Shown here one piece after another: positions 12,064-60,690 of a DNA stretch of 64,000 bases. Below the pieces are notes generated by a model that had not been told where the DNA came from, did not search any database, and saw only the letters and a list, made by a program, of their open reading frames with translations. How positions within the stretch are numbered: the first letter of the stretch is position 1; the number at the start of each line of letters is the position of its first letter. The DNA lies in the NCBI GenBank assembly GCA_034439895.1, contig JAWXBF010000003.1:6819-70818 (forward strand). Reading direction: 5' to 3'. The translations under genes were made by a program, and so were the position numbers. Origin of the DNA: Deltaproteobacteria bacterium. GTDB taxonomy: Bacteria > Myxococcota_A > Polyangia > Fen-1088.

Positions 12064-13331
12064 CGCACACGACCCGACGCCAACTTTGGGGTGACGCTCC
12101 ACAACAGTTTTCTGACGCGTCTGTCGATGGGAAAGCGGGTGACCAAATGGCCAATGTGATTGGGTCGGTGTTGATAGCTGACGACGATCCGACGATTCTT
12201 CGTACACTCAAGCGGGCGTTGTCCGCGCTGGGATACGACGTGAGAACGGCAGACAATGGCAACGTGGCCGTGGAGGACACTCGCCAGTTTTCGTTCGACG
12301 CAATCATTGCCGACATCGATATGCCAGGCATGACAGGCATCGAGATGTTGAAGGCCGTTCGCGCGAGCGATCCCGATGTTCCCGTGTTGCTAATCACGGG
12401 CGATCCGGGTCTGGACACGGCCATGCGTGCCGTCCGATACGGCGCGTTTCGATACCTTCCGAAGCCCATCGAGATGGACGAGCTTGCCGAATCGCTGGCA
12501 TTTGCCGTTCAGGTTCACCGTTTGGCTCGCATCAAACGCGAGGCCCTGGCGCTGTTTGGCGAAAATGATCGTCAGGCCTCCGATCTTGCGGGACTCGAAC
12601 GCGATTTTGATTGCGCGATGTCTTCGATGTGGATGGCGTTTCAGCCGATCGTTTCGTGGCGCCAAAAGAAAATTATTGGATACGAAGCCTTGCTGCGCTC
12701 AGTTGAGCCGGCGTTGCCACATCCCGGCGCAATCCTCAGTGCTGCTGAACGACTCGATCGCATGCGTGAACTGGGCAACCGCGTGAGGGAGGCGTCTGCC
12801 GCGGAAATGACCGACCTTGCGCCCGATTTGACCGTGTTCGTGAATCTGGCGGCGCAAGATCTGGCAGACGAGTCGTTGTACTCAAATGTAGCACCCTTGT
12901 CGAAGGTGGCTTCGCGCGTGGTACTTGAAATCACCGAGCGCGTGAATCTCGATGGGATCTCGGATATCGAACGACGGATGTCCGCGTTGCGCGAGCTGGG
13001 CTTCCGCCTGGCGGTGGACGATCTCGGTGCCGGCTACGCAGGGCTCACAAGCTTCGTGAAGATTCGGCCGGATATCGTCAAGGTGGACATGAGTCTTGTG
13101 CGCAACATTCACCTGGACGCGGCCAAACGCAAGTTGGTGGGTGCTCTCATCGATCTCTCAACGAGCATGGGCATTCAAACCGTCATTGAGGGTATCGAGA
13201 ACGCCGATGAACTTGCCGTGGTGGTCGAGCTTGGCGCCGACCTGATGCAGGGCTTTCATTTCGCCGTTCCTGGCATTCCTTTCCCGACCGTTCCTCCCGC
13301 TCGTTTTGATCTGAAAAATTCCGAGAGCTGA
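12060..13331 (+). CDS. response regulator with EAL c-di-GMP phosphodiesterase domain (REC-EAL)
   Basis: REC (LIADDDP, IADIDMPGMTG, LLITG) and EAL catalytic residues (EALLR, FVNLA, EITER, DDLGAGYAG, KVD, EGIE, QGF) are all present. Confidence 0.9.
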   Translation: MTHTTRRQLWGDAPQQFSDASVDGKAGDQMANVIGSVLIADDDPTILRTLKRALSALGYDVRTADNGNVAVEDTRQFSFDAIIADIDMPGMTGIEMLKAVRASDPDVPVLLITGDPGLDTAMRAVRYGAFRYLPKPIEMDELAESLAFAVQVHRLARIKREALALFGENDRQASDLAGLERDFDCAMSSMWMAFQPIVSWRQKKIIGYEALLRSVEPALPHPGAILSAAERLDRMRELGNRVREASAAEMTDLAPDLTVFVNLAAQDLADESLYSNVAPLSKVASRVVLEITERVNLDGISDIERRMSALRELGFRLAVDDLGAGYAGLTSFVKIRPDIVKVDMSLVRNIHLDAAKRKLVGALIDLSTSMGIQTVIEGIENADELAVVVELGADLMQGFHFAVPGIPFPTVPPARFDLKNSES

Positions 13332-13335
13332 ACCC

Positions 13336-20701: not shown

Positions 20702-21523
20702 TTAGCCGAGCAGCGACAAGGCCAGCGAAGGGAGCTGGTTGGCCTGTGCGAGGACCGAAACCGCAGCCTGTGACACGATTTGATTTCGTGTGAACTGAGC
20801 CGTTTCCTTGGCCACGTCCACATCGCGAATTCGCGAGTTGGCGGCCGACGCATTTTCGTGGGCGTTCGCGAGGTTCGAGACGGTGATGGAGAGGCGGTTT
20901 TGTGAGGCACCGATGTCGGCGCGTGTGGTCGACAGGGTCTCGATGGCCGTGTCGATGACTGCGAGGGCGCCTTGCGCGCCAGCTGCAGTACTGAAATCGG
21001 TGGCGGCGACGCCCAGGTCGGTAGCGGTTGTGGCACCGAAGGTCACCGTGACCACGTCGCCCGTCCCGCCCTGAATGCCGACCTGCATATCGATGGTCGC
21101 TCCCGCTGCCAGCATGTTGGTGCCGCTGAACTCGGTCACGTTCGCGATGCGGTCGATCTCCAGTTCGAGTGCAGCGCGTTCCGTTTCGACGTAACCGCGT
21201 TCCACGGTGCCGAGGGTGCCGTTGGCAGCTTGCATTGCGAGTTCGCGCATACGAACCAGGATTCCCGACTGTTCGTTCATCGCGCCTTCCGCGACCTGAA
21301 TCATCGAGATGCCGTCGTTCGCATTGCGTTCTGCCTGCGCCATGCTGCGGATGTCCGCCTTCAAGCCCTCGGAGATACCGAGGCCTGCAGCGTCGTCCGC
21401 CGCCTTGACGATGCGCATGCCCGATGCGAGGCGAGCGATGTTGTCGCCCAATTGTCCTTGAGCGCTGTTCAGGTGCCGCTGAGCGCTGAGGGACGCGGTG
21501 TTGGTATTCATTACGAGTGCCAT
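20702..21523 (-). CDS. fliC: flagellin
   Basis: N-terminus MALVMNTNTASLSAQRHLNSAQ; the conserved D0/D1 motifs; C-terminus NQIVSQAAVSVLAQANQLPSLALSLL. A strong SD (AAGGAG) precedes the internal ATG, which is therefore preferred over the longer ORF start. Confidence 0.9.
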   Translation of the reverse strand: MALVMNTNTASLSAQRHLNSAQGQLGDNIARLASGMRIVKAADDAAGLGISEGLKADIRSMAQAERNANDGISMIQVAEGAMNEQSGILVRMRELAMQAANGTLGTVERGYVETERAALELEIDRIANVTEFSGTNMLAAGATIDMQVGIQGGTGDVVTVTFGATTATDLGVAATDFSTAAGAQGALAVIDTAIETLSTTRADIGASQNRLSITVSNLANAHENASAANSRIRDVDVAKETAQFTRNQIVSQAAVSVLAQANQLPSLALSLLG

Positions 21524-21630
21524 TTTTTCTCCTTTTGTGATGGCGCTCTGTGCGCCCTTCAAGGAGATGGTTCGTCCAACCTCGGGAATCCTCTAGGGGG
21601 GAATTTGAGAAATTCACATTGCCCCTTGAA

Positions 21631-22503
21631 TTACCGGCCAAGTGCGATCGCAACGATGCGCTCAGCGACCGCGCGAGCGCTTTCCAACGCGGCGCTGGCT
21701 CGGGCGAAATCGGTTGCGGCGTCCACCGGATCGATTCCGATCGCCCGCTCTTGCATGCGGGCAAGTTCGACCTCGAATTCGCGGCGGGCGTTGTCAACGG
21801 CATCAAGCGCGGCCGATTGCGAACCGAGTTGGGTGCGGGTGTTTGCAACTTGATCGACGGCTGTTGATAGATCAGCCAGGTTCGCGCGAATCGCATCCCC
21901 ATCGTTGCCATTGAGTGAGGCGATGATGTTGTCGAGGGTTGTGAACACGTCAACCCCCGTGGCCGTCGTCAACGCTTCACCGGTGACGCCGAAGGTTCCG
22001 ACGTTCGCTTCGCTGGCTTCGATCTGTCGACGCGTACCATTGCCCGCATAGACGCCGTTGGCACCAAAGGGTGCAACGTTGCCCGCAGAACCTGCGAGCA
22101 GAAATTCTCCGTCGGGTCCTTGTGTGTTTGCGAGGCCCAGCATCTGAGCCCGCAAGGCTCGAACCTCCTCGGCGACTCCGGCGCGTTGGGCGGCGGTGTA
22201 GGTATCGTTGGCAGCCTGAACGGTCAGTTCTCGCACGCGGCTCAATCCCTCGCCGATACCCGAGAGTGCCCGATCAGTTTCTCCGAGCCGTTCGTTTGCA
22301 CGTGCGACGGCGTTGCCCCGTCGTTCGCTCAGGGTGTGGCGAACCTCGGCGCGCATTCCTTCAGCCCAATCCGTAACACCGTCGGACGGGCGATCCACGC
22401 GAACGCCGGTCTGGAGGGCATCGCTTGCCTCTTGCACCCGCGAGCGTTGACGAGAGGTCTGTTCCGAGGCCGTTTCGATCATTCGGGTTTCAGTAACACG
22501 CAT
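21631..22503 (-). CDS. flgL: flagellar hook-associated protein 3 FlgL
   Basis: Flagellin-like N and C termini (MRVTETRMIE...; ...RAVAERIVAIALG) and position after flgK. Confidence 0.8.
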   Translation of the reverse strand: MRVTETRMIETASEQTSRQRSRVQEASDALQTGVRVDRPSDGVTDWAEGMRAEVRHTLSERRGNAVARANERLGETDRALSGIGEGLSRVRELTVQAANDTYTAAQRAGVAEEVRALRAQMLGLANTQGPDGEFLLAGSAGNVAPFGANGVYAGNGTRRQIEASEANVGTFGVTGEALTTATGVDVFTTLDNIIASLNGNDGDAIRANLADLSTAVDQVANTRTQLGSQSAALDAVDNARREFEVELARMQERAIGIDPVDAATDFARASAALESARAVAERIVAIALGR

Positions 22504-29300: not shown

Positions 29301-30014
29301 TTACTCCTCGTCCTCGGTTTTGAGTTCTGCTTTCAAACGCAGCACAGCGCGCGAGTGCAATTGCCACACGCGCGATTCGCTCACGCTCAAAACCGTTCCG
29401 ATTTCGGCGTAGCTCAGTTCCTCGACGTAGTAGAGCGCCAGGATCTGTGCGTCTCGTTCCGGAAGCCGCCTGAGCGCATCGTGGAGGCGGTCTCGCATTT
29501 GTGCACGCTCGGCGAGTGTGGAGGGCGAGTCTTGTGCGTCGTCAGATTTAAAGTTGCTCTCGAGTTCGGAGCCGAAATCGATGATGGAAACGTGGGTCAG
29601 GCTCTCGAGATCGTCCTGGTACTCCTCGACCGAAACGTTGAGGGCTTTGGCAATCTCATCGTCTTCGGGGTGTCGGCCCAGCTGTTGTTCGAGGTTGACG
29701 ATCGTTCGACCGACCTCGCGGGCCTTGGCGCGCAGGCGGCGGGGCATGATGTCACCTCGGCGCAGCTCATCCAGGACAGCGCCCCGGATGCGCTTTTCTG
29801 CAAATGCCACAAACGGTTCCTCGCGACCCTCGTCGTAGCGATCGGCGGCCTCGGCCAATCCCACCATTGCAGACGCAACGAGATCGTCCTCACTCAACCA
29901 GTCGGGCACTCGACGTGCCACGCGCAGGGCGATGCGACGGGCGACATCAACGTTCTCCGCGATCAAGCGATCCCGGCGATCATTGGCGCTGCCTGCTTTG
30001 GCGTATCCTTTCAT
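29301..30014 (-). CDS. fliA: flagellar sigma factor sigma-28 FliA
   Basis: Sigma-70 regions 2, 3 and 4 (DLVASAMVGLAEAADRYD; LSYAEIGTVLSVSESRVWQLHSRAVLRL) and position after flhG. Confidence 0.9.
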   Translation of the reverse strand: MKGYAKAGSANDRRDRLIAENVDVARRIALRVARRVPDWLSEDDLVASAMVGLAEAADRYDEGREEPFVAFAEKRIRGAVLDELRRGDIMPRRLRAKAREVGRTIVNLEQQLGRHPEDDEIAKALNVSVEEYQDDLESLTHVSIIDFGSELESNFKSDDAQDSPSTLAERAQMRDRLHDALRRLPERDAQILALYYVEELSYAEIGTVLSVSESRVWQLHSRAVLRLKAELKTEDEE

Positions 30015-30994
30015 CCGCCAACTTCCTTTTCGTTTCGGTCAAACGTACGGCGCAAGAACAAGCGCACGCCGCCTTGACGATCCTCGGGTCGCGCAAGTGC
30101 CTCGATGCGCCGTGCGACTTGCCGAATGGCCCGGCTTGCTGGCGCATCGGGATTGTAGACCAGTAAGGGAATGCCCTCTTCGTTGGACTGTGCCATTTGA
30201 GGGTCAAATGGAATCGGAGGTAGCGGCGTCAACGAGATGCCAAGGAATCGGTTCACCACCGAGGCCAGGCGATCGAAGAGTTCATCGCCATCGGAAGGGC
30301 GGCGAATCTTGTTGGGCAAGACCATGGCTCGGGTCAATCCGACGCGGTGATGCAGTGCCTTCAAGCAAGAGTAGGCATCCGCAAGCGAGAGCGATTCGGG
30401 TGTAATCACCACGATGATCTCGGAAGCCGCGGCGGCAAAATTGACGGTGTTGTCGGCGATGCCGGGCGCGGTGTCGATGACGAGCGTGTCAAAGCGATTG
30501 TCGAGGGTGTCGACTGCTGCGAACAAACGGTGCCGTGTGGCCTCGTCGATGTTGGCGAGAGGAAAGCTTCCGTTCAGAGCTGGCAATACATGAATACCGT
30601 GGGCTTCGACCAGGACATCATCGATGGGCATCCCCTCCATCACGTCGAGGAGGCTGTGTCCCGGTGCGAGGCCGAGCAGCAGGTTGAGGTCGGCCATGCC
30701 GAGATCGGCGTCGAGCGCGAGCGTGCGCGAGCCGCGTTGTGCGTAGGCGACAGCGAGATTTGCAGCGATGACGCTTTTCCCTGTGCCACCCTTGCCGCCC
30801 GAAATGGCGATCGCTCGAACGTTGGATGCAAGCGCGGGTTCGTTGCCCTCGCCGCGCAAGGTTGAAGCTTGATCTTCCTTGGGTTTGCGCGCGCGACCGA
30901 TCGGAATGATATCCGACTTGTCGCCCGCCTTGCTGGCCACTATTTTCGTGTTCCAGCGCGGCTCGATCATGGGAGCGAGGTTGAAGGCGCTCAT
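30011..30994 (-). CDS. flhG: flagellar number/placement ATPase FlhG (FleN/MinD-like)
   Basis: Deviant Walker A SGGKGGTGKS, the N-terminal DQAxxLR activator motif (EDQASTLRG) and the MinD-like fold. Confidence 0.9.
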   Translation of the reverse strand: MSAFNLAPMIEPRWNTKIVASKAGDKSDIIPIGRARKPKEDQASTLRGEGNEPALASNVRAIAISGGKGGTGKSVIAANLAVAYAQRGSRTLALDADLGMADLNLLLGLAPGHSLLDVMEGMPIDDVLVEAHGIHVLPALNGSFPLANIDEATRHRLFAAVDTLDNRFDTLVIDTAPGIADNTVNFAAAASEIIVVITPESLSLADAYSCLKALHHRVGLTRAMVLPNKIRRPSDGDELFDRLASVVNRFLGISLTPLPPIPFDPQMAQSNEEGIPLLVYNPDAPASRAIRQVARRIEALARPEDRQGGVRLFLRRTFDRNEKEVGG

Positions 30995-38058: not shown

Positions 38059-38378
38059 GATGCCCCATCCTTGTCGTTGCGGACGATCTCGACGATGCGT
38101 GCGCCATAGCGATCCCCAATTGCAACGGCTTCGGCGCGGGCGACGAGTCGTTCGTTCACCCGCACATCCAGTTTGTCGCCGGTCAACTTGGACAGCGGAA
38201 TGATGGACCCTGGACCAAGTCGCGAACCTACTTCTTTCAGGCTCATGATGACCCGTCCCAGTTCAACCGACAACTCAACCGGAACATCGCCGAGCAAAAG
38301 ATCGAAGGACTCGACCCTCGCCGCGTTGTCGGACTGTCCCTTGGGATTCTCGCCTGGGTTTTTTCCCTCGGTGCTCAT
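38055..38378 (-). CDS. fliN: flagellar switch protein FliN (SpoA domain)
   Basis: LLGDVPVELSVELGRVIMSLKEVGSRLGPGSIIPL...VRVNERLVARAEAVAI. Confidence 0.85.
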   Translation of the reverse strand: MSTEGKNPGENPKGQSDNAARVESFDLLLGDVPVELSVELGRVIMSLKEVGSRLGPGSIIPLSKLTGDKLDVRVNERLVARAEAVAIGDRYGARIVEIVRNDKDGAS

Positions 38379-39322
38379 GATGGGCGGCCTTTCGTGTTGG
38401 TGTTTCCGATTACCTCGACGGCCATCGTGCCGCGGGAAACGAGTGCGCGTCCGTGCCCTTTGACTTTTCCGCCGACGCGGATTGGCAGTGGATCGTCCAG
38501 AAACTTGTCGAGGGGCAAAATGGTGCCCGGCTGGAGACGCGACAGAGCGTTCATCGTCATTCGGACGCGTCCTAGCTCGACGTTCACCTCGACGGGAACT
38601 CCACCAAGCGCTGCCTCGACGGCGCCGGGCGGTGCCGGCACGGAGCCCACGGGTACGGGCGGAACCACCATGGTCTCCGGCCGAGCGATCAGACCAATCG
38701 TACCACGGGTGTCGCCTTCGATGGCGATCGTGGTGCTGACCACGAGATCGCCCGGGGAAAGACTGCGGCGCCAGAGTTCGGTGCGGGCGGCATCGTCAAG
38801 CAGGTTGACGCTGCATCCCTGTTCCTCGAACCAGGCGTCCGTCAAACCGCGCGTGATGGCTTCTCCGACGCGTCCGAACAACTGACGCGCCACTTGCGAC
38901 GGGGGTCGGTCGTTCTCGGATTGTTCAAGCTGCGCACCCAACAAACAGGCCGACAAAATTTCGACCATGGGTCCCGATGCGGTCATCAAGGCCAGGTCCG
39001 ACCGCTTGTCGACCCGGAGGCAACGAACCCAGGCTTCCCCGAGGGCGTCGCGCAATCCACCGCCGTCTACAACCTCGACGTTTTGCACCGTGGCTTCCAC
39101 GTCGACCCGGCAAAGGCGGGCGATGAGCTGTGGAATTGTCTTGATCCAGCGTGCCGCAATTTTCTGGGCGTTGGGGCGGGCGCGCTCGGCGGCGCGATCG
39201 TCGGCGATGAGCGCTATCGGCTCCGCCTGGAGTTCCAGATCCTCGGCAGGGGTCGAGCGTCGACCTTTGCCCATGGCAGTCTGAATGGCCTCGAATTCTT
39301 CGGATGAGAGCTTGTCGCCCAT
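38375..39322 (-). CDS. fliM: flagellar switch protein FliM
   Basis: The N-terminal CheY-P binding motif LSSEEFEAIQ (consensus LSQxEIDALL), the middle domain and a C-terminal SpoA-like domain. Confidence 0.9.
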   Translation of the reverse strand: MGDKLSSEEFEAIQTAMGKGRRSTPAEDLELQAEPIALIADDRAAERARPNAQKIAARWIKTIPQLIARLCRVDVEATVQNVEVVDGGGLRDALGEAWVRCLRVDKRSDLALMTASGPMVEILSACLLGAQLEQSENDRPPSQVARQLFGRVGEAITRGLTDAWFEEQGCSVNLLDDAARTELWRRSLSPGDLVVSTTIAIEGDTRGTIGLIARPETMVVPPVPVGSVPAPPGAVEAALGGVPVEVNVELGRVRMTMNALSRLQPGTILPLDKFLDDPLPIRVGGKVKGHGRALVSRGTMAVEVIGNTNTKGRPS

Positions 39323-39339
39323 GACATCGACTTACCGAT

Positions 39340-39355
39340 GCAAGCGACGGGCCAG
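39340..39355 (-). promoter_or_regulatory. putative sigma-54 promoter (TGGCCC-N5-TTGCA) 18-20 bp upstream of fliM
   Basis: The minus strand reads cTGGCCCgtcgcTTGCa, one mismatch from the TGGCAC-N5-TTGCW consensus. It has the same geometry as the flgB promoter. Confidence 0.45.
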
Positions 39356-39531
39356 AAAAATATCGTGTATTTACAGTACCTTACGAAATGGCCGCCTTCT
39401 TGACGTTGCCGCCGTTGACGACCGCGCCAAAAAGGACAACGCGACGACGCGACACGCTGTTGGAAAAACGGACGCACCGGGTCGCGGGGTGTTTGCCCCG
39501 GAACCCCGTGCATCGCGATGCGTCTTGAACC

Positions 39532-48687: not shown

Positions 48688-49083
48688 CTAGCCAACTCCG
48701 TCCGAGGACGTGTATCGCAGCAACGCGAGTCGTCTGGATACGAGCTCGGAATTCGTCGCGTACCGCACGCGATTCGAATCAATCTTTGCCATCTCGTGTT
48801 CGAGACTGACCGCGTTGCCGTCCGCGCCGATTGGTCCTGAGCCATCGGCCACGACCTGACCCGTCATCGTTCCCCCCGCACTCGGCATATGTCCGTCGGC
48901 AGTCCGTGCCATCACGACCGAACCGAGCGTGTTTGGATCGCCTTCAGGAATGATCTCGAGATCGATCGGCTTGTAGTTGGGCGTATCGATGTTGGCAACG
49001 TTGGATGCCAGCACACCATGTCGTTCGCGATGAAAGGACATCGCATTCGACATTTGATCGACGCTGTTGAGTAGGGCTTTCAT
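48688..49083 (-). CDS. flgB: flagellar proximal rod protein FlgB
   Basis: VLASNVANIDTPNYKP and a C-terminal MAKIDSNRVRYATNSELVSRRLALLR. Confidence 0.85.
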   Translation of the reverse strand: MKALLNSVDQMSNAMSFHRERHGVLASNVANIDTPNYKPIDLEIIPEGDPNTLGSVVMARTADGHMPSAGGTMTGQVVADGSGPIGADGNAVSLEHEMAKIDSNRVRYATNSELVSRRLALLRYTSSDGVG

Positions 49084-49100
49084 TGCGGAAAGGTTTTAAA

Positions 49101-49115
49101 GCAAGCGCCGTGCCA
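49101..49115 (-). promoter_or_regulatory. sigma-54 promoter, exact consensus TGGCAC-N5-TTGC, 18 bp upstream of flgB
   Basis: The minus strand reads tTGGCACggcgcTTGC. An exact match like this is expected ~0.1 times by chance in the window, and it sits at the head of the first flagellar operon, next to the sigma-54 activator gene. Confidence 0.5.
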
Positions 49116-49207
49116 ACAGCGAGCTCGCAAACCATCCACAAGAAATCCAGTAGTTACGTTCCACCAGGCGGAGCCGTTGGCAAAACTGGCGGCAGTTTTG
49201 ACGTCGG

Positions 49208-50239
49208 TCAGACCGCGATCTTGCGAAGACGCTCGACGAGCGTGGTGCGGTTCAAACCCAGAAGGGCAGCCGCTTCTGTTCGGTTTCCAGCCGTTCGCTC
49301 AAGCGCGGTACGAATGAACTTTTCCTCGACCGTATCGACCGCCTTGCGGAGATTGAGGTCGTTGGCTGCCGCTTCGGTTGTATCGTTCGTCGGAAAAGCC
49401 GAGTTCACGACCGCCATCACCGCGCGAATCGGACGCGCCTTTTTCCCGGAGAAACGAATATCCGCGGCCGTCAAAACGCCGCCGCGCTTCATGACGATGC
49501 TGCGCTCAATGGTATGCGCAAGCTCACGGACGTTGCCGCGCCAGGCGTGTTCTTTCAGAACGCGTTCCGCAGAGGCATCGAGTCCGGTTACCGAGCGTTG
49601 CAACCGGGCATTGGTCTCGGTCAGAAAGCGATGCGCCATCGGTGCGATGTCGTCGGCGCGTTCGCGCAATGCCGGCAAGTCGATCTGGATCACCGTCAAA
49701 CGGTAATACAAGTCGGCACGAAAGGTTCCCTCGTCGACCATTTGTTCGAGGTCGCGATTCGTCGCTGCGATCACGCGCACGTCGATGCGGATCTCCTTGT
49801 CAGCGCCAACCGGCGTGAGCATTCCGTCCTGCAAAACGCGAAGCAATTTCGCTTGCGCCTGCAGCGGCAGTTCGCCGATCTCGTCTAGAAAGAGCGTGCC
49901 GCCATCGGCTGACGCCAGGCGTCCTTCGCGGGCGGCGATGGCGCCGGTGAAAGCACCCTTCGTGTGTCCGAAAAGTTCGGCCTCGATTAGGCTGTCTGGA
50001 ATCGCAGCACAATTCAGGGGGACGAGTGCGCGGTTGGCTCGAGGTGAAGCGCCGTGAATCATGCGCGCGACAAGCTCTTTGCCGGTGCCGGTTTCGCCGG
50101 TGACCAACACCGTGCAGTCGGTGTCCGCCACGTTGCGCGCTTCGGTCAGCGATTCCAGGATGCGGGGATCGTCGCCAATGAACTCGGGCGCGAAGGCGAT
50201 GCGCCAGGTTTCAAGGTCAGCATTTGGATCCAACTTCAT
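49208..50239 (-). CDS. sigma-54-dependent transcriptional activator (AAA+ central domain plus Fis-type HTH) lacking any N-terminal receiver or sensor domain; probable flagellar master regulator (FleQ/FlrA-like, PspF-type architecture)
   Basis: Walker A GETGTGKE, the GAFTGA sigma-54 contact motif, Walker B and arginine finger, and a C-terminal HTH (AAALLGLNRTTLVERLRK). The AAA+ domain starts at about residue 25. Confidence 0.9.
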   Translation of the reverse strand: MKLDPNADLETWRIAFAPEFIGDDPRILESLTEARNVADTDCTVLVTGETGTGKELVARMIHGASPRANRALVPLNCAAIPDSLIEAELFGHTKGAFTGAIAAREGRLASADGGTLFLDEIGELPLQAQAKLLRVLQDGMLTPVGADKEIRIDVRVIAATNRDLEQMVDEGTFRADLYYRLTVIQIDLPALRERADDIAPMAHRFLTETNARLQRSVTGLDASAERVLKEHAWRGNVRELAHTIERSIVMKRGGVLTAADIRFSGKKARPIRAVMAVVNSAFPTNDTTEAAANDLNLRKAVDTVEEKFIRTALERTAGNRTEAAALLGLNRTTLVERLRKIAV

Positions 50240-50487
50240 CGAGACAAGGACATCGTCGGGGCCGTCGACCGAGTTGAGGATTTCTTGTGAGAAAACGTGA
50301 CGAATGAGTCATTAAAACATGTCTCTAGAAAGTCTCTCGGTGAACCCAGGCTAGCTCTCCATGGGTGACGGGTTTGGGCGGGAAAGAGAATGATCACGAG
50401 CCCGTACGGCAGGCGCTTTTATCAAAAAAATACGGTAAATTCATCGAAAAATGGCGGTGTCCCGGGTCGCTCTGTTCTTGTGGAAAA

Positions 50488-50527
50488 GGTGACAACTGTC
50501 AATGTGGCGTCACCCAGAGCAGGTGAC
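50488..50527. promoter_or_regulatory. GGTGAC repeats (GGTGAC-N15-GTCACC inverted pair plus a third GGTGAC) in the AT-richer divergent intergenic region
   Basis: GGTGACaactgtcaatgtggcGTCACCcagagcagGTGACacg, in the 428-bp region between the sigma-54 activator gene and the FHA gene. Confidence 0.3.
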
Positions 50528-50667
50528 ACGCAGCAGGTAAACAACGCGATGCGCTTTGCCTAATAACCCGAACGAGGTGTCATGGTTCCCGCGCTTTTTC
50601 ACACACATCGCATCAAGCAGTTCGGCCCAACTGTCGATGTCATAATTCGAGTGCAATCCAGCGGCCC

Positions 50668-51240
50668 ATGGCGATAAACCGAGTCCCACTCCGAGAGCTG
50701 CGACCGCCCACCTCGGGGGGCGGCGCTGCGCAGTATCTCGCTGATTTCATTGAAGATATGCGCAAGGGCGAGGTTAGCTTTGCGTACCAGTACCGCTGGC
50801 CGGCCATGATTGTCACGGGCCTCACCGGCACCTTGAGCGATCTCGGCAGCAGGACCGGGACCCTCGTCACCGACGATCACAGCGCCGATGTGCGCCTCGC
50901 GAGTCTGCTCGTCGGACGGGTGTTCCTGTTGCGCAAGAACGCCAACGCCCAGCCCGGTCAAATTCGGATAGGGCGGGTTGCTGAAAACGACGTTCCCATT
51001 CCCGAGTTTTCGATATCAAAGCATCACTGTCTTTTACGACCTGCGCCAAATCGTACCACGATCGAAGACATGGGCTCGACCAACGGATCTCTCGTCAACG
51101 GAACGAAGCTGATTCCACACCAGCAGTATGCCGTCGAGGATGGCTCCGAAATCGTTCTCGGCCGTTTCGTCTTCCTCTTTTTCACCGCCCGTGGCTTCGT
51201 CGACTACGTCAAGCGTGAACTCGCCGACCTCTCGGCCTAG
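50668..51240 (+). CDS. FHA-domain protein
   Basis: A C-terminal FHA core (IRIGRVAENDVPIPEFSISKHHCLL...IEDMGSTNGSLVNGTKL...DGSEIVLG). Confidence 0.75.
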   Translation: MAINRVPLRELRPPTSGGGAAQYLADFIEDMRKGEVSFAYQYRWPAMIVTGLTGTLSDLGSRTGTLVTDDHSADVRLASLLVGRVFLLRKNANAQPGQIRIGRVAENDVPIPEFSISKHHCLLRPAPNRTTIEDMGSTNGSLVNGTKLIPHQQYAVEDGSEIVLGRFVFLFFTARGFVDYVKRELADLSA

Positions 51241-54970: not shown

Positions 54971-56545
54971 TTGGGGACGGTGAGGCGTAGTTTAGGCGAA
55001 GGAGAACCCGAAGAGACCACACAGACCGATGGTCCGGTCCTGGAGCGTGGGCGTTTGCGTTCCGATCGGCCCCGGCTGGTGGTCATCGGGGGGATTGCAA
55101 AGGGCCGACAATTTGCCATTGCCGACGACGGTGCCACGATCGGGCGTTCCTCAGAAGCGACGGTAACGATCGAGGATCGTCGGCTGTCACGGGTGCACGC
55201 CCGCATCGTGACGACGCGGCCCGGCACCTGGATTCTCGAAGACCTCGATAGTAAAAACGGCACGATCGTCAACGGTGAAGCCGTCAAACGCAAGACGCTT
55301 TCCTATGGTGACGAGATTCGCATCGGCGACTCGGCCTTGATCTTCACGCACCATAATCCTGTCGAAGAACAGATCTTTCAGCGCGAGCGGATGGAACTTT
55401 TGGGTCGTCTGGGTGCGGGCGTTGCGCATGACTTCAACAATTTGCTCAGTGCTGCACGTGCAAGCATCGAGTTTCTTGATTCGCTTCCGCCAAACTCCCG
55501 GATCGACGAACCCGATATCCTTGAATGCCGTCGCGACGCGCTGAGCGCGCTCTCGCAAGCCACGACCCTGTCTGCGCGTTTGCTTGGGATGAGCCGGCAA
55601 CAGGCCTATGTTCTCGGTCGCGTGGATGTTGCGGATCTTTGTCGAGATGCGGTCGATCTGTTAAAGCGCACCGTCACGCGATCGATCGCGATCGATTTGC
55701 AGACAGAGCCGAATCTGTTCACGATGGGTGATCGGGGTCAGTTGCATCAAGTGATCATGAATCTGGGCGTCAATGCGCGTGACGCCATGCCGGCGGGGGG
55801 CAAGTTGACGGTTTCTTGTCGACGCGGTAGCGCGCTTGACTATCCGGTTTCCGGTCGCACCGACGGTGACGTTGTGATTCTCAGCGTTTCAGATACTGGC
55901 CAGGGTATGGACGAGGAGACCCGGGAAAATGCCTTTGATCCCTTCTTCTCGACGAAAACCGACCGCGGCGGTACGGGACTTGGCCTCGCCACCGTGCTTG
56001 AGATCGTAAAGTACCACGGCGGTTCGATTGACCTACAATCCGAGCTTGCCAAAGGAACAATGTTTCGCATCTTCCTACCGGCGCCACAAGATGTCGTCGC
56101 TACGGGTCGTGACACGTATGCCGAGTTGCCGTCCCTTGATCGGGCTCGCAGCATCAGCTCGGAATCCATGGTGCGGACGGCTCTTGTGGTGGACGACAAT
56201 CCCGTGATGCGCAGAAGCCTCGCTCGCCTCTTGAAGGCGCAGGGTTTTGAGGTGACGCTTGCCACCAACGGGCAGGAAGGTGTCGAGAGGTTCAGTGAAA
56301 GTCGTCCCGACTTCGTGCTACTCGATTTCGATCTGCCAATTCTGTCGGGTGCCAAGGTTTTTGAACGGCTGCGAACGCTCGATCCCGATATTCCAATCAT
56401 CCTCATGTCGGGTCACGCGACCGCGACGATCGAGCGCATGTCGCAGTGGTTCGGTGATCCGCCACTGTTTCTGCAAAAGCCTTATGGCGCACAGGATCTG
56501 CGCAATGCCATCAGCGAAGTTCTTACCCGAAAAGGTCGGGGATGA
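54971..56545 (+). CDS. FHA-domain / histidine kinase / receiver hybrid (FHA-HisKA-HATPase-REC)
   Basis: FHA (ATIGRSSEATVTIEDRRLSRVHARI...EDLDSKNGTIVNGE...YGDEIRIG); H-box GAGVAHDFNNLLSA; N box MNLGVNARDA; DTGQGM; GGTGLGLATVLEIVKYHGG; C-terminal REC (ALVVDDNPVM, VLLDFDLPILSG, IILMSGH). Confidence 0.85.
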   Translation: MGTVRRSLGEGEPEETTQTDGPVLERGRLRSDRPRLVVIGGIAKGRQFAIADDGATIGRSSEATVTIEDRRLSRVHARIVTTRPGTWILEDLDSKNGTIVNGEAVKRKTLSYGDEIRIGDSALIFTHHNPVEEQIFQRERMELLGRLGAGVAHDFNNLLSAARASIEFLDSLPPNSRIDEPDILECRRDALSALSQATTLSARLLGMSRQQAYVLGRVDVADLCRDAVDLLKRTVTRSIAIDLQTEPNLFTMGDRGQLHQVIMNLGVNARDAMPAGGKLTVSCRRGSALDYPVSGRTDGDVVILSVSDTGQGMDEETRENAFDPFFSTKTDRGGTGLGLATVLEIVKYHGGSIDLQSELAKGTMFRIFLPAPQDVVATGRDTYAELPSLDRARSISSESMVRTALVVDDNPVMRRSLARLLKAQGFEVTLATNGQEGVERFSESRPDFVLLDFDLPILSGAKVFERLRTLDPDIPIILMSGHATATIERMSQWFGDPPLFLQKPYGAQDLRNAISEVLTRKGRG

Positions 56546-58599
56546 CTGCACCCACTGGCAGCGGCGGAATGCAACCTGACGCCGGACCCGCAGGGCTTTT
56601 TGGCAGTCAGGTTGGGCCGTATCGAATCCGTTCGTTGCTAGGCGAAGGCGGCATGGGGGTTGTGTATCTCGCCGAGCACGAGCTGATCGGTCGAAAAGCG
56701 GCGATCAAGATGTTGGCGGCGGACGTGGCCGGCGATTCAGAGGCCGTGTCACGTTTCTTCCTGGAAGCGCGCACGGTCAATCAGATAAGGCACCCCAATA
56801 TCGTTGATGTGACGGATCTCGGACATCACGACACTCAGCCGTACATCGTGATGGAGTATCTCGAGGGCGAAACATTGGCCGATCGCCTGAAGCGGGCGGG
56901 GCCGATGGATTCAACCGTCGCATTGAAAGTCACGCGACAGGTGGCGTCTGCCCTTGGTGCGGTCCATGAGCATGGACTGGTTCATCGCGATCTCAAGCCC
57001 GCCAATATTTTCATATGCGCCCATCCGGATTACCCCGACTTCACGAAGGTTCTTGATTTCGGGATCGCGAAGCTTGTCTCGGTCCATGAAGACGTTGGCC
57101 ACAAGACCCGCGCCGGTGCGTTGTTGGGAACACCGCAATACATGTCACCCGAGCAATGTTTGGGTCAAAGGGATATTGATCCGCGCAGTGACATCTACTC
57201 GCTTGGTGTTGTTTTGTACGCCATGCTGACGGGACGGTTGCCGTTCGCCAATCGTCCGTTTGGCCAGTTGATTGTGGCGCATGTGATGGAGGTACCTGCG
57301 TCACCGCATCAAGTGAATTCGGGGGTTGCCCCCGTCTTGAGTGCACTCGTGATGAAAATGCTCGAAAAGCGACGCGAAGAACGGCCTGCGAACATGTTCG
57401 TCTTGCGTGATTCGATTGATTCCTTGCTGGGCATAGAACACGAAATTCCGGGCGTCCCTATCATGTCGCTCGGCAGCGATGGCACCGGTCCCATTGGTCT
57501 TGCGGCGGCCGCCTTTGCCGATGAAGGCCATACCGCCGAAATGCGGGCGCGGTTGCTGGCAGTCAATCTCGAAGCCACCGAGACCTCCGCAGGAAGTTTC
57601 CGAGACGAAGATTTCGATTCCGATACTTCTGGCTCGCCCGGTACACCTGAACCGACTTCGGCCGTAGTCGGTGGTGCCAGCCGTGCACTTCCCGATCACG
57701 CGACGCTTGTGGAACGGGTTGGTGACTTCATCGACGAACGTCTCGCCGTCGAAAAGATACCCTTGCCGGTGCTGTCGCGGGCATCGGCGCAATGCCTCGA
57801 ACTGATGCGCTTGCCGGGCTTTTCGTTTGCGGATCTTTCCGAGGCCATGATGCGTGAACCGAACCTCGCTCGCCGAATCGTTGCACAAGCGAATCGAGTG
57901 GTGGGTAGCGCATCCACTCAGCGCGTGGTCGGCATCGCGCAGGCGGTTCGTCGGATTGGCGCTGCCGGCCTGCAGCGGACTCTGGTCGAAATGGCAGCTC
58001 GTCCGGCGTTCTGTCCACCGAATTCTCGTTTTGCCCAGGCACTCAAGCGTCCCTGGCACCATGCAATTGCAACCGCGCTGCTGGCGGAACGCATAGGCTC
58101 AAATGCGCAACTGCCGCAGCTTCAACCCATCACGGAATCGCTCTACATCGCGGGCCTCTTGCACTCGATCGGGCGTTGCGTCCTGACGAATTTCCTCTTG
58201 ACCAGTGAACGCCGGATCGCCCGACGCTATGATCTACCCCGTTTACCCTGGGCAGCCTTGCTCGACGCTGCGGATGCCGCGTCGATTCGCGTTTCGGTTG
58301 CCGTCGCACGGGGTTGGAACTTGCCCGAGGACGTCGTGGGTATGTTGGCATCGTGTGGCCTGGTTGGAAGTCGAACCGACAATGGCGCCGCGGCTCCTGC
58401 GGCTGCGGTGGTACTCCGCCTCGCACACGGGATTGCACTTCGCGAAGGGTTCGTGCTTCGTGACGAGGACAAATCCGGTGTATCGAACGACATTCGCGCG
58501 AGCCGAATGCGTCTTGGCCTCGATGAATCCGTGATCGATCGAATGCTTTTCGATCTCCAGAATCACGTGGCTCGACTCGCACGCACGCGCGGCGAGTGA
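56542..58599 (+). CDS. Ser/Thr protein kinase (Hanks type) fused to a C-terminal HDOD domain
   Basis: Kinase motifs (GEGGMGVVYLAEH, AIKML, HRDLKPANIF, DFGIAK, TPQYMSPEQ). A long linker leads to an HDOD domain (IVAQANRVVGSAS...IAGLLHSIGRCVL). The start overlaps the stop of the previous gene (ATGA). Confidence 0.85.
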   Translation: MTAPTGSGGMQPDAGPAGLFGSQVGPYRIRSLLGEGGMGVVYLAEHELIGRKAAIKMLAADVAGDSEAVSRFFLEARTVNQIRHPNIVDVTDLGHHDTQPYIVMEYLEGETLADRLKRAGPMDSTVALKVTRQVASALGAVHEHGLVHRDLKPANIFICAHPDYPDFTKVLDFGIAKLVSVHEDVGHKTRAGALLGTPQYMSPEQCLGQRDIDPRSDIYSLGVVLYAMLTGRLPFANRPFGQLIVAHVMEVPASPHQVNSGVAPVLSALVMKMLEKRREERPANMFVLRDSIDSLLGIEHEIPGVPIMSLGSDGTGPIGLAAAAFADEGHTAEMRARLLAVNLEATETSAGSFRDEDFDSDTSGSPGTPEPTSAVVGGASRALPDHATLVERVGDFIDERLAVEKIPLPVLSRASAQCLELMRLPGFSFADLSEAMMREPNLARRIVAQANRVVGSASTQRVVGIAQAVRRIGAAGLQRTLVEMAARPAFCPPNSRFAQALKRPWHHAIATALLAERIGSNAQLPQLQPITESLYIAGLLHSIGRCVLTNFLLTSERRIARRYDLPRLPWAALLDAADAASIRVSVAVARGWNLPEDVVGMLASCGLVGSRTDNGAAAPAAAVVLRLAHGIALREGFVLRDEDKSGVSNDIRASRMRLGLDESVIDRMLFDLQNHVARLARTRGE

Positions 58600-59175: not shown

Positions 59176-60690
59176 CTATCCGGCTGCACTGATTGGCGCC
59201 ACAATCGGATCGGCCGCGCAAACGCGATTGCGGCCAGACTCCTTTGCCCGGTACATCGCGGCGTCGGCTGCGGCAATCAGGGCCGGAATCGAAACCGTTT
59301 GACCTGCGCCGACCGTGGCGCAACCGAAGGATGCCGTCAAGGGAATGGGCGTTCCGTCTTGCGTTTGAACGGTGAGCTGCGAAACCCGCTCTCGTACCCG
59401 TTCTGCGACGATGAGGGCGCCCGGCGTCGGCGTTTCGGGCAACACCACCACGAACTCTTCACCGCCCCAGCGGGCCGGGAGATCGCGCGGGCGGAAGTTC
59501 TTCAAGAGAAGTCCACCGATCGCTTTCAGGACCGCATCGCCGACGAGGTGTCCGTGTTTGTCGTTGACCTTTTTGAAGTGATCCACGTCCACCATGATGA
59601 TGCTCAGCGGCGTTTTGGTGATGCGCGCTTTGGTCAGCTCGTGTTCAATGAACGTCTCGAACCGATTGCGATTGGCCAACCCAGTCAAGAGATCAGTTAC
59701 CGACTTTCCCTCGGCTTTTTCAGCCCGATCGGTCAGCGAGAGCATCGTTTCGGTCATCTGGATTTCGGTCGAAACAGCAGATAGCAGGAGGGCCTCGCGG
59801 GCTTCTTCCAGGATCTCGTCGATGGTTTCTTGCGAGTCCATCGGTGCTTCGAGCAGCGTGAACAACTCGCCCATTGTGTCGTGTACCCTGGCGAGCAACT
59901 CGTCAAACTTTTCGTCCGTCAAGTTGAGAATCTTTGAGGCGAACGCCCGTGCGTGCCGTGTGGGCAACGCGCGATCAGGCGCCAGCCAGATGTCGGTGAC
60001 GTGGTTTGCGGTCGCGACGATGCGCGAGAGCGTCACCACGCTGGGCTCCGTCTTGTCGTCCGTGATCCCGAACTTGTGACTGTGGGCAATGATCATTGCG
60101 AACTGGGCAGGCAGTCTCCATTTTTCAGCGAGCCAGGCGCCCACTTCGGCGTGATCCGAGCCGAATAACTCCGTTTCCTGCGCGCTCAATTCGCCATGGT
60201 TGTGAATGGATTTCTCAAGGATCGCGCCGTACGTCGGCTCAATCGTTGCCAGGGTCAAGATGCCGATATCCTGCATCAATCCCGCCAAGAAGGCCTCTTC
60301 CAGATCGCGAACTCCGACCAGGGCAGCGAGGTGCCGCGAAACGAGCCCCGACAAAGCAGATCGTTTCCAGTACGCGCGAAACCAGGGCGTTTGAGCTGCC
60401 TTGACCGTCCGTGCAAGCGTAAATGACAGCGCCATGGCGCGCAAGGAGTTGAGCCCCAGCATCGCAACGGCGTGTGATACGGTTGTGACCTCGCGGCGAA
60501 CGCCTAGCATGGGCGAGTTGGCCATCTTGAGAACCTTGGCGGACAGGGCGGCGTCCGTCGTGATGGTGGACACCACGTCGCGAACGTTGGGTTCCGCTTT
60601 TTGGCATTGCTCGAGCACCTTCATGGTGACCGCGGGCAACGTGGGCATACTCTTGGCCTGGGTGAGTCTCGTTTGTAGTGCCGGATCCAT
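59176..60690 (-). CDS. HDOD-GGDEF protein (diguanylate cyclase with an N-terminal HDOD domain)
   Basis: HDOD (AKVLKMANSPMLGVRREVTTVSHAVAMLG...AGLMQDIG). GGDEF with an I-site (RPRD-LPARW-GGEEF) and the preceding DVDHFKKVND. Confidence 0.85.
   Translation of the reverse strand: MDPALQTRLTQAKSMPTLPAVTMKVLEQCQKAEPNVRDVVSTITTDAALSAKVLKMANSPMLGVRREVTTVSHAVAMLGLNSLRAMALSFTLARTVKAAQTPWFRAYWKRSALSGLVSRHLAALVGVRDLEEAFLAGLMQDIGILTLATIEPTYGAILEKSIHNHGELSAQETELFGSDHAEVGAWLAEKWRLPAQFAMIIAHSHKFGITDDKTEPSVVTLSRIVATANHVTDIWLAPDRALPTRHARAFASKILNLTDEKFDELLARVHDTMGELFTLLEAPMDSQETIDEILEEAREALLLSAVSTEIQMTETMLSLTDRAEKAEGKSVTDLLTGLANRNRFETFIEHELTKARITKTPLSIIMVDVDHFKKVNDKHGHLVGDAVLKAIGGLLLKNFRPRDLPARWGGEEFVVVLPETPTPGALIVAERVRERVSQLTVQTQDGTPIPLTASFGCATVGAGQTVSIPALIAAADAAMYRAKESGRNRVCAADPIVAPISAAG

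Follow-up and report, generated by a model that had tools for sequence, protein, structure and literature searches.

The window, a 64-kb stretch of DNA from an uncultured flagellated Myxococcota-like bacterium related to the myxobacteria, probably holds the core of a sigma-54-dependent flagellar regulon, which we consider the best explanation of the evidence as a whole. Two flagellar operons are each headed by a -24/-12 box abutting the first start codon, and the flgB box is preceded directly by the gene of a sigma-54 activator that has no receiver domain. Both features had been remarked on in a first-pass annotation, and both are confirmed on the window sequence. Myxococcota are known for gliding, not swimming; the present analysis documents complete flagellar systems in this group, together with a defined regulatory code (box plus dyad).

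For comparison, we used loci from 13 lineages of Myxococcota MAGs, labeled L001 to L016. Most were obtained by looking up FlgB homologues through exact protein matches; searching metagenomes with an alignment of FlgB yielded three loci only, and a scan of genome contigs with FliG yielded one, L005, which lacks the flgB upstream region and diverges past flgE. The synteny of activator gene and flgB is kept in L001-L004, L009, and L013-L016. Among the ORFs of the 64-kb window scanned with Pfam, there is no rpoN.

Sigma-54 boxes at flgB and fliM

The elements of the two promoters are as follows.

49101-49115, minus strand: flgB box, sigma-54 -24/-12 promoter, TGGCACGGCGCTTGC, consensus with 0 mismatches (span 49101..49116, TGGCACGGCGCTTGCT)
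48688..49083, minus strand: flgB, first gene of its operon (Pfam Flg_bb_rod), N-terminus conserved across lineages
49181..49203, minus strand: candidate enhancer (UAS) of the flgB promoter, CGTCAAAACTGCCGCCAGTTTTG, with a perfect inverted repeat of 8 bp inside it, 88 bp before the -24 T
39340-39354, minus strand: fliM box, sigma-54 -24/-12 promoter, TGGCCCGTCGCTTGC, 1 mismatch (span 39339..39354, TGGCCCGTCGCTTGCA)
38375..39322, minus strand: fliM, first gene of the second operon (Pfam FliMN_C; N-terminal LSSEEFEAI motif)
39392..39420, minus strand: candidate enhancer, two CGTCAA motifs at 66 and 51 bp before the -24 T of fliM
39462..39517, minus strand: terminator-like hairpin plus U5 after flgE, between the flgB and fliM transcription units (RNA fold)

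The first of these promoters heads the operon flgB-flgC-fliEFGHIJK-flgDE; the second heads an operon that runs fliMNOPQR-flhBAFG-fliA-flgFGAHIJ and onward, with fliA (sigma-28) and flhG encoded inside it. From the C of the flgB TTGC element (49101) to the A of the ATG (49083) the distance is 18 nt, with 17 bases between, and the C of the fliM box (39340) lies equally 18 nt from its ATG (39322). The exact TGGCAC-N5-TTGC previously claimed 18 bp before flgB (49101-49115) is thus present without a mismatch; the one-mismatch copy claimed before fliM with the same geometry also stands, but its end coordinate had been placed one base off (39355 instead of 39354).

Counted over the whole window, the bare motif with at most one mismatch is not significantly enriched (10 matches versus 5.9 +/- 2.3 in shuffles), and several equally scoring matches are intragenic, among them one at 29906 inside fliA. 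Such counts would be expected if the boxes were chance matches without promoter function, a reading that is strongly disfavored and to which we give next to no credence. A sigma-54 weight matrix run over all 128,000 window positions ranks the flgB box first and the fliM box tied third. The chance of an equally good box 12-20 nt from a given start is 7e-5 for flgB and 4e-4 for fliM, and a per-promoter chance of 1e-3 to 7e-5 would have to be repeated across 13 lineages and 25 instances. The position of the box is conserved, a phased dyad lies upstream, and a sigma-54 activator gene is adjacent, all of which argue against coincidence. The other near-consensus boxes (at 453, 16407, 29906, 32564, 52799, and others) are intragenic or have no correctly placed gene; these were taken as chance.

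Comparison with the related genomes, where the absence of the boxes would have counted against the promoters, yields 25 promoter instances in 13 lineages, and in all of them 14-18 nt separate the -12 C from the homologous start codon. The instances comprise flgB at 13 loci, fliM at four, a ~170-aa secreted protein at five, and others at three; the other box-bearing genes include one for a methyltransferase and, in two of the lineages, that of the activator. At flgB, the 14-18 nt spacing persists in 13 lineages whose FlgB proteins are as little as 40% identical; the N5 spacer and flanks diverge among them, and the stretch between box and start codon is likewise conserved in length but not in sequence. 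The fliM box is identical in L001; in L015 the orthologous promoter is separated from the annotated ATG by 14 nt, and in L012 and L013 the distance is 15 nt, measured to in-frame start codons farther upstream, which align with the N-terminus of the window protein.

Upstream of the boxes, the motif CGTCA[AG] (background 7e-4 per nt) recurs ~55, 65, 76, or 87 bp away in 17 of the 25 promoters, so that the positions of the CGTCAA-type dyad fall in ~11-bp steps. The candidate UAS of flgB is conserved in L001 and L002, and the -65 CGTCAA position of fliM is found in the fliM promoters of L012, L013, and L015 as well. The dyad is probably the enhancer. In the window's own lineage, this proposed dyad is degenerate in its right half, and the loose enhancer pattern CGTCAANNNNGCCG shows no window-wide enrichment (16 observed versus 11.8 expected). 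Two other exact copies of CGTCAANNNNGCCG, at 30433 and 37965, have no box downstream. A terminator reading of the candidate flgB enhancer, and of the palindrome after the activator stop codon, was set aside, since a U-tract is missing and the spacer folds no more stably than shuffled sequences do (z = +0.68).

Start codons and predicted 5' ends

In the standard sigma-54 geometry, +1 lies ~12 nt after the -12 C, which gives the following prediction for flgB.

49084..49090, minus strand: predicted transcription start (~49089) and a 4-6-nt leader without Shine-Dalgarno, from sigma-54 geometry

By the same measure, leaders of 4-6 nt are predicted in the window and of 2-3 nt in the lineages with a 14-15 nt spacing. 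The earlier proposal that two sigma-54 promoters produce near-leaderless class II flagellar mRNAs gains support from the geometry of 25 promoters and from the phased dyad; its figure of ~6 nt is a prediction. No Shine-Dalgarno-like string was found upstream of window flgB or fliM, and such strings precede about two thirds (~20 of 30) of the internal flagellar genes.

The prediction depends on the start codons, and gene callers disagree on starts in this clade; three misplaced start codons were found here. If initiation occurred farther downstream, the sigma-54 transcripts would have ordinary leaders of 40-50 nt, and a Met at FlgB position 15 (NAM[ST]FH) is indeed conserved in many lineages. 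We regard this as very improbable. In-frame TAA codons at -15 (flgB) and -12 (fliM) pin the start codons. Codons 1-14 of flgB vary synonymously among the window, L001, and L002 and evolve as coding sequence: the window and L001 differ there by three synonymous changes, all in third positions. Across lineages, the peptide MK.L(F/L)..VD is conserved at the protein level. Met15 is replaced by Leu in L012, L013, L014, and L016. The length of FlgB up to its NVANxDTP motif agrees with that of E. coli FlgB. A later start would also deprive FliM of its N-terminal LSSEEFEAI, part of a CheY-binding-type motif (MGDKLSSEEFEAI).

A more serious alternative, still unlikely in our judgment, accepts the boxes and the start codons but supposes that flgB and fliM are translated mostly from longer transcripts, produced by read-through out of the activator gene or from unrecognized promoters farther upstream, by internal initiation at sites that may or may not have a Shine-Dalgarno sequence, the sigma-54 transcripts being minor or conditional. 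In L010, L011, and L014, Shine-Dalgarno-like strings (GAGGG, AAGGA) follow the -12 element ahead of the start codon, upstream of the canonical transcription start and hence outside a transcript that begins there. The activator gene and flgB of the window are co-oriented and 124 bp apart, without a convincing terminator, and the bases 11-14 nt past the -12 C of the window flgB promoter are pyrimidines (TTCC), a poor initiation context. On the other hand, the geometry is held in L010 and L011, in which the gene upstream of flgB is divergent, so that read-through cannot account for expression there. Before fliM stands a strong terminator-like hairpin (-42 kcal/mol, z = -3.2, with 0 of 200 shuffles equally stable); a similar element occurs in L001, and the window copy is unlisted by a simple terminator scan. 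A simple scan found no sigma-70-like consensus in the flgB, fliM, or activator-FHA spacers, and the lack of Shine-Dalgarno-like strings before window flgB and fliM also speaks against this alternative. Finally, the constraint to 14-18 nt in 25 promoters is hard to explain if distance were unimportant.

A point against the favored near-leaderless reading is that leaderless translation in E. coli already drops when the 5' end is lengthened by a few nucleotides, so a 4-6-nt leader is not obviously efficient. Folding of the predicted 5' ends was uninformative, the ends being no more structured than shuffles (z ~0 to +1). The result has a practical side, in that gene finders that expect a Shine-Dalgarno site misplace start codons in these genomes.

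A flagellar activator without a receiver

The activator gene and its surroundings comprise the following features.

49208..50239, minus strand: receiver-less sigma-54 enhancer-binding protein, 343 aa (Pfam, translation, orthologue alignment)
50240..50667, no strand assigned: divergent spacer separating the activator gene from that of the FHA protein; GTCACC repeats conserved (50364-50527), sigma-54 box absent (alignment with L001, L002)
50668..51240, plus strand: stand-alone FHA-domain protein, 190 aa (Pfam FHA, residues 99-165), divergent neighbor and candidate trans partner
30011..30994, minus strand: flhG/fleN-type MinD-like ATPase in the fliM operon, candidate feedback anti-activator (Pfam ParA/CbiA; NCBIfam MinD-like below cut-off)

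The PspF/HrpS-like architecture ascribed to the activator holds: Pfam finds only an AAA+ domain (Sigma54_activat, PF00158, residues 21-186, E = 1e-70), a lid (AAA_lid_14, 192-267), and a C-terminal Fis-type HTH (HTH_8, PF02954, 302-340, E = 1e-12), preceded by an N-terminal stretch of 20 residues only, and no REC, FleQ, GAF, or PAS domain. The Walker A/B motifs and the sigma-54 contact loop (GETGTGKE, LFLDEIGE, and GAFTGA, the last at residues 95-100) all occur and do not vary among orthologues. No 5' extension of the ORF is possible, as it is closed on that side. A REC remnant or frameshift is ruled out as well, since tblastn with five orthologous REC domains finds no remnant in the 430-bp spacer upstream and nothing past the linker. 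A 120-aa ORF on the minus strand (50599-50961), considered as a split-off receiver, has no Pfam match and overlaps the FHA gene on the opposite strand.

As judged from its sequence, the window activator is the orthologue of the NtrC/FlbD-like response regulator that lies upstream of flgB in sister lineages, minus the receiver. The orthologues of L009 and L013-L016 carry a receiver with an intact acidic pocket and phospho-Asp; it is absent in the window, L001, L002/L003, and L004. Alignment reveals a clean deletion in the window protein that ends at the REC/AAA+ junction, and because sister lineages retain the receiver, its loss is a derived state. The closest relatives of the activator are REC-bearing NtrC-like proteins (55-62% identity), which indicates that its AAA+/HTH-only form arose independently through receiver loss. 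It falls below the cut-off of every NCBIfam equivalog, including those for PspF (TIGR02974, 277.7 bits with a cut-off of 443.55; NF008622, 242 with 529) and FlbD (308 with 750).

From the missing receiver it had been concluded that control of the activator must be exerted in trans, with the neighboring kinases among the candidates. The necessity is not shown, since a receiver-less protein may be constitutive and governed through its own synthesis; as for the kinases, the neighboring histidine kinases would find no receiver on the activator to act on. Most likely, the window activator is constitutively competent; its control would lie in the amount made, from a non-sigma-54 promoter behind the conserved operator-like spacer, with an anti-activator possibly as an additional control. 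In L009 and L015, the gene of the REC-bearing orthologue has a sigma-54 box; the window activator gene has none. Candidate controllers are the expression level, feedback by FlhG, and the adjoining FHA and Ser/Thr-kinase proteins.

A variant that differs in control alone, and that we rate as possible yet clearly the less probable course, is that the activator is not autonomous and answers either to the FHA protein and a Ser/Thr kinase-HDOD protein (56542-58599), phospho-threonine replacing His-Asp signaling, or to FlhG as anti-activator. In the window, L001, and L002/L003, the activator gene has the FHA gene as its divergent neighbor; the receiver-less activators of the window, L001, and L004 have a Ser/Thr kinase-HDOD gene next to them or close by, which is not found at the six receiver-bearing loci; and a Thr before a conserved Trp (DLETWR) occurs in window-type proteins only. 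In addition, flhG lies inside the regulon, and PspF/PspA, HrpS/HrpV, and FleQ/FleN provide precedents (PMC10084136, PMC4145663). Against this variant, the independent receiver-less lineages number only two, L004 has no adjacent FHA gene, the receiver-bearing L016 has a Ser/Thr kinase nearby too, and the FHA protein, like the activator, falls below the cut-off for all named families.

In the model we propose, the 343-aa protein would bind the CGTCAA-type dyad, which lies 65-88 bp ahead of the -24 element in both the flgB and the fliM operon. It would oligomerize and, powered by ATP hydrolysis and acting through its GAFTGA loop, convert the closed complex of sigma-54 RNA polymerase to the open one. 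Initiation ~12 nt past the -12 GC would put the 5' end 4-6 nt ahead of the ATG here and 2-3 nt ahead of it in most relatives; with such a start, the first cistron of each operon would lie on a (near-)leaderless mRNA without a Shine-Dalgarno site and depend on 5'-end-dependent initiation, and the downstream cistrons would use ordinary Shine-Dalgarno sites or coupling. The fliA (sigma-28) of the fliM operon would form the next tier, and flhG could provide negative feedback. If this is true, the first basal-body and switch genes are governed almost wholly at open-complex formation, with no 5' UTR for post-transcriptional control. A receiver-less activator should work alone, which would make in vitro start mapping with sigma-54 polymerase unusually easy. 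It is an even call whether the model extends to an entire clade of these uncultured, flagellated Myxococcota, such that flagellar sigma-54 transcripts begin 0-6 nt before the start codon and the activator of the window's subclade has shed its receiver, its input perhaps rewired to a Ser/Thr kinase plus FHA or to pure expression control.

Relation to known sigma-54 and leaderless systems

The receiver-less half of the finding is not novel, since such activators are already catalogued: PspF, HrpR/HrpS, and LafK are listed as type Ic activators without a signal-recognition domain (PMC3162934). The window activator shares their AAA+ plus HTH_8-only architecture. It is no orthologue of PspF, falling below the equivalog cut-off (278 versus 444 bits); LafK, the lateral-flagella regulator of Vibrio parahaemolyticus, heads a flagellar hierarchy as well. 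The general statement of the first-pass annotation, that flagellar sigma-54 regulators usually bear a REC or FleQ domain, is fair, with LafK as a catalogued exception (PMC3162934). Trans control of PspF is exerted by PspA and that of HrpS by HrpV (PMC10084136, PMC4145663), and no PspA- or HrpV-like gene was found among the window ORFs scanned.

FlbD, FleR, FlrC, and FlgR are sigma-54 activators whose genes adjoin the early and middle flagellar operons that they drive. The orthologous proteins in L009 and L013-L016 share their REC-AAA+-HTH layout; the window protein differs in having no receiver and hence no phosphorylation by neighboring histidine kinases. In Pseudomonas aeruginosa, FleN inhibits the FleQ ATPase through direct contact (PMC10084136), so FleN-type inhibition would need no N-terminal domain. 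An FlhG/FleN-type ATPase is encoded within the regulon here and, by analogy, may interact with the activator. In contrast to FleQ, the window activator has no Pfam match to the FleQ N-terminal domain, and the putative enhancer CGTCAA...CGACG is no known FleQ box.

Sigma-54 promoters are a tightly gated, enhancer-dependent class whose known transcripts have ordinary leaders; those of glnAp2, pspA, and nifH are tens of nucleotides long and contain Shine-Dalgarno sites. The window promoters resemble canonical ones in their TGGCAC-N5-TTGC, with the -24 GG and the -12 GC at a spacing of 10 bp, in a helically phased candidate upstream site ~100 bp from the start, and in the adjacent activator gene, but here only 14-18 nt separate the -12 GC from the start codon. 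In surveys, sigma-54 promoters are spread 0-200 nt upstream of start codons (PMC3162934). A literature search on sigma-54/RpoN plus leaderless, which did not extend to the 1999 promoter compilation of Barrios, found no report of sigma-54-driven leaderless transcripts. A conserved near-leaderless sigma-54 regulon thus appears to be new, and we did not find the combination of a stripped-down activator with start-abutting sigma-54 flagellar promoters described.

Leaderless mRNAs are defined by leaders of 5 nt or less, with Myxococcus pexR as a proposed myxobacterial example (PMC12754779); Bradyrhizobium japonicum has 192 exact and 320 near-leaderless transcripts, and known leaderless transcripts are tied to sigma-70-type (-10 or extended -10) promoters (PMC4842269). 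With the leaderless mRNAs of Actinobacteria, Deinococcus, Caulobacter, and Bradyrhizobium, the flgB and fliM transcripts would share a start codon near the 5' end, as predicted here, and the lack of a Shine-Dalgarno site; they would differ in a leader predicted at 2-6 nt, not 0, and in a promoter of the -24/-12, enhancer-dependent type. If the model is true, sigma-54 transcription would here be coupled systematically with leaderless-type translation for the first time, and a regulon conserved at 14-18 nt would show that enhancer-dependent sigma-54 gating and the leaderless mechanism can be combined.

The flagellar region and its activator

Pfam scans of about 60 ORFs delimit a single large flagellar region that runs from fliD (19258) to fliL (59117), with most genes on the minus strand. 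It holds two long transcription units, the first preceded directly by the activator gene:

49208-50239, minus: sigma-54 activator gene, directly upstream of flgB
49083 down to 39532, minus: unit 1, flgB-flgC-fliE-fliF-fliG-fliH-fliI-fliJ-fliK-flgD-flgE
after a 209-bp gap: unit 2, fliM-fliN-fliO-fliP-fliQ-(fliR)-flhB-flhA-flhF-flhG-fliA-flgF-flgG-flgA-flgH-flgI-flgJ, continuing

Past the activator gene lie a divergent FHA-protein gene, an HDOD-HD gene and two histidine-kinase-type genes, and on the same side an FHA-kinase-receiver hybrid gene and a Ser/Thr kinase fused to HDOD; the scans found no rpoN in the 64-kb window. The interval 19258-59117 comprises a complete flagellar set (fliD, flagellin, flgKLMN, rod/ring/hook, export apparatus, flhFG, fliA, fliL), adjoined by a c-di-GMP signalling block (PilZ, REC-EAL, REC-GGDEF-EAL, kinases; 8331-15345), and an HDOD-GGDEF gene (59176-60690) lies upstream of fliL. 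Many Kofleriaceae, Haliangiales and Myxococcales MAGs carry FlgB homologues; their phylum is known for gliding. The flagellin gene is equipped with a leader and a strong AAGGAGAAAAA Shine-Dalgarno (SD) site (21523-21640, minus); its upstream spacer (68-110 nt) shows no obvious consensus for sigma-28 or sigma-54.

The activator (343 aa) consists of Sigma54_activat (21-186, GAFTGA at 95-100), an AAA lid and HTH_8 (302-340); its ORF is closed at the upstream end and the 428-bp upstream spacer holds no receiver remnant, which bears out the first-pass annotation of a protein with AAA+ and HTH domains only. It is 100% identical to an NCBI protein from a "Deltaproteobacteria bacterium" MAG; three close relatives share 90-100% identity, the next-best matches are NtrC-like response regulators (55-62%), and relatives both close and distant are labelled Myxococcales, Kofleriaceae, Haliangiales or Myxococcota. 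Among related loci from Myxococcota MAGs (L001-L016) and the contig of P0147, the gene upstream of flgB encodes a REC-AAA+-HTH protein of 446-486 aa in L009, L013, L014, L015, L016 and the P0147 contig. Aligned with these orthologues, the window protein begins at the exact REC/AAA+ junction (...DLxxWR..FAP.IIG.DP...). Most orthologous receivers retain the acidic pocket and phospho-Asp; P0074, the orthologue on the P0147 contig, has lost both (VALVLGD... VAAVLADG) and resembles a halfway stage of receiver decay. The L004 activator (62% identity) is likewise receiver-less, with a different N-terminal tail. Judged by these alignments, the window activator is a case of derived receiver loss.

Sigma-54 boxes before flgB and fliM

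The first-pass annotation had placed a TGGCAC-N5-TTGC box 18 nt before flgB and a copy of the same geometry at fliM, and both were found at that spacing:

49101-49115, minus: flgB box TGGCACGGCGCTTGC, final C 18 nt upstream of the flgB ATG
39340-39354, minus: fliM box TGGCCCGTCGCTTGC, likewise ending 18 nt upstream of the fliM ATG

As to background, the raw count of near-consensus matches in the window is not significant (10 observed vs 5.9 +/- 2.3), but rank and position are: a sigma-54 weight matrix run over all window positions ranks the flgB box best and the fliM box tied third, and the chance of a comparable box 12-20 nt from a given start codon is ~7e-5 (flgB) and ~4e-4 (fliM). Both start codons are secure on sequence grounds, since in-frame stops lie 15 nt (flgB) and 12 nt (fliM) upstream, flgB codons 1-14 evolve as coding sequence (synonymous changes among close relatives, peptide kept among distant ones) and FliM begins with the LSSEEFEAI motif. 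An out-of-frame ATG (39325-39327, minus), 5 nt upstream of the fliM ATG, coincides with the predicted transcription start; a transcript beginning at this ATG would carry it as the start of a 37-codon ORF.

Several features favour separate transcription of the two units. A likely terminator divides the operons between flgE and the fliM box: a long GC-rich hairpin with a trailing U5 (39462-39517, minus; -42 kcal/mol, z = -3.2), which a simple terminator scan missed. No sigma-70-type consensus occurs in the spacer before flgB or before fliM, and the upstream neighbour of flgB is divergently oriented in L010 and L011.

Look-ups of exact proteins, homologues of the activator and of FlgB, together with two collection scans yielded 16 loci. 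Every locus covering the flgB upstream region has a -24/-12 box before the homologous start, with FlgB identity from 98% down to 40%; the boxes are thus conserved in related genomes. The N5 spacer, flanks and box-to-start bases diverge, and only the box and its distance are kept:

-12 C to flgB start, 18 nt: window, L001, L002/L003, L004, L013
-12 C to flgB start, 15 nt: L012, L014
-12 C to flgB start, 14 nt: L007/L008, L009, L010, L011, L015, L016

The fliM box is identical in L001, lies 14 nt before the annotated ATG in L015, and in L012 and L013 stands 15 nt before GTG or ATG codons that are in frame and match the window N-terminus in the alignment. A blind scan of all loci added boxes before a conserved gene for a ~170-aa signal-peptide protein (14-15 nt), an L016 gene for a 221-aa protein (14 nt), an L004 methyltransferase gene (17 nt) and the gene of the receiver-bearing activator itself, where the -24 element is of TGGAT type (15 nt in L009, 16 nt in L015):

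L009 2436-2963; L010 822-1331; L011 760-1281; L012 8522-9022; L015 6703-7206: ~170-aa signal-peptide genes
L009 3403-3417; L015 8379-8393: TGGAT-N6-CTTGC box before the activator ATG

In total 25 promoter instances fall within the 14-18-nt band. One L004 box lies 39 nt upstream of a gene with a clear AAGGA site, so ordinary leaders occur too. The contig of L005, with a 97%-identical FliG, departs completely from the window directly past the flgE stop codon (L005 6980-7258), where neither fliM nor the box is present, by either rearrangement or an assembly break. The ~170-aa family has no Pfam match and is absent from the window; its genes sit in sister-lineage flagellar clusters, each with its own box, and are each followed by a small Cys-rich, Asp/Pro/Ala-repeat lipoprotein-like gene. 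Public gene calls misplace start codons beside these promoters (L010, L012, L013): the FlgB call of L010 overruns by 33 nt (5001-5034), so that the box falls within the ORF, and FliM is probably called too short, by 9 nt in L012 (18937-18946) and 12 nt in L013 (19286-19298), where SD-like strings precede the called ATGs.

Upstream of the boxes a CGTCA[AG] motif recurs, often as a dyad CGTC-N9-GAC(G), in 17 of the 25 promoters (background in the same DNA, 7e-4 per nt); the loose pattern is not enriched over the whole window. Its positions relative to the T of TGGC are -55/-56, -64 to -67, -76 to -80 or -86 to -88, in steps of ~11 bp:

49181-49203: candidate flgB enhancer, within a perfect 8-bp inverted repeat right behind the activator stop codon
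39392-39420: candidate fliM enhancer, CGTCA[AG] motif

These candidates lie ~90-110 bp from the predicted transcription start, a distance and helical phasing expected of an activator-binding site, from which we infer binding. The TGGAT-type promoters of the activator genes lack the CGTCAA dyad, which suggests a higher-tier sigma-54 activator in the L009 and L015 lineages. L015 also encodes a second REC-type activator (3086-4462).

Predicted leaders

Sigma-54 transcription would be expected to start at about the 12th base after the -12 C, as in nifH- and glnAp2-type promoters. Leaders predicted on this geometry measure 4-6 nt for the window; for the lineages at 14-15 nt, where position 11 or 12 is a purine, they shrink to 2-3 nt. 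No SD-like string precedes window flgB or fliM, and one is present at ~20 of 30 internal flagellar genes; SD initiation is thus general in the organism, but apparently not used for these first cistrons. Folding of the predicted 5' ends revealed no unusual structure.

A purely leaderless model leaves unexplained the SD-like strings (GAGGG and AAGGA types) that three loci have downstream of the -12 element and ahead of the start codon, since a canonical sigma-54 transcript would exclude them:

L010 5021-5033: GAGGGAAC
L011 4988-5000: GAGGGGGG
L014 7107-7120: AAGGAAAG

Sigma-54 transcripts could possibly coexist with longer, SD-bearing ones. The pyrimidine-rich +1 region of window flgB points the same way, as does the harm that a few additional 5' bases do to leaderless translation in E. 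coli; the starts are predicted, and no rpoN was seen in the 64-kb window. For near-leaderless flagellar mRNAs, as first proposed, speak the box geometry, recurring clade-wide in the 25 instances, and the lack of SD sites at flgB and fliM; the leader length itself is a prediction from geometry.

Control of the activator and comparison with known systems

The window activator gene has no sigma-54 box of its own. The activator/FHA divergent spacer contains:

50240-50667: spacer, 428 bp
50364-50369, 50488-50493, 50509-50514, 50522-50527: four GTCACC motifs (~0.4 expected), including the dyad CGTCACC-N7-GGTGACG
50302-50313: AATGACTCATTC element

All are kept in L001 and L002, and the spacer is probably the operator for whatever controls the activator gene. 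We favour an activator that is constitutively competent and controlled through its own synthesis, with FlhG feedback possible on top, given the location of flhG in the fliM operon. The neighbouring histidine kinases, proposed earlier as controllers, are ruled out, since the protein has no receiver for them to act on. An attractive alternative input would be the FHA protein with the Ser/Thr kinase-HDOD protein, which co-occur with the receiver-less lineages, although these number only two independent ones. The unusual kinase-HDOD fusion is conserved beside the flagellar cluster (window 56542-58599; L001 1612-3669; L004 7655-9667); the window encodes four HDOD proteins and two FHA proteins (50668-51240; 54971-56545, FHA-HATPase-REC).

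The original observation is thus confirmed; most of its interpretation is supported and can be widened to a regulon spanning the clade. The architecture of the activator has been seen before: sensor-less sigma-54 activators (PspF, HrpR/S, LafK) are already catalogued as a class (PMC3162934), with known trans inhibitors PspA and HrpV (PMC10084136, PMC4145663), making this protein another member. It shares with that class the absence of a receiver, but reaches no NCBIfam equivalog cut-off (PspF, 278 vs 444; FlbD, 308 vs 750), and unlike its nearest NtrC-like/FlbD relatives it lacks REC. What appears new, as read from the promoters, is that the sigma-54 box keeps a distance of 14-18 nt from the start codon and comes with a phased dyad, a point directly open to testing. 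Leaderless mRNAs are usually defined by leaders of <=5 nt, and one driven by sigma-A has been proposed in myxobacteria (PMC12754779); the literature searched yielded no report of sigma-54-driven leaderless transcripts. In transcriptome studies, known leaderless mRNAs are tied to promoters of the -10 or extended -10 type (PMC4842269), whereas here the leaders are predicted from the geometry of enhancer-type -24/-12 boxes.
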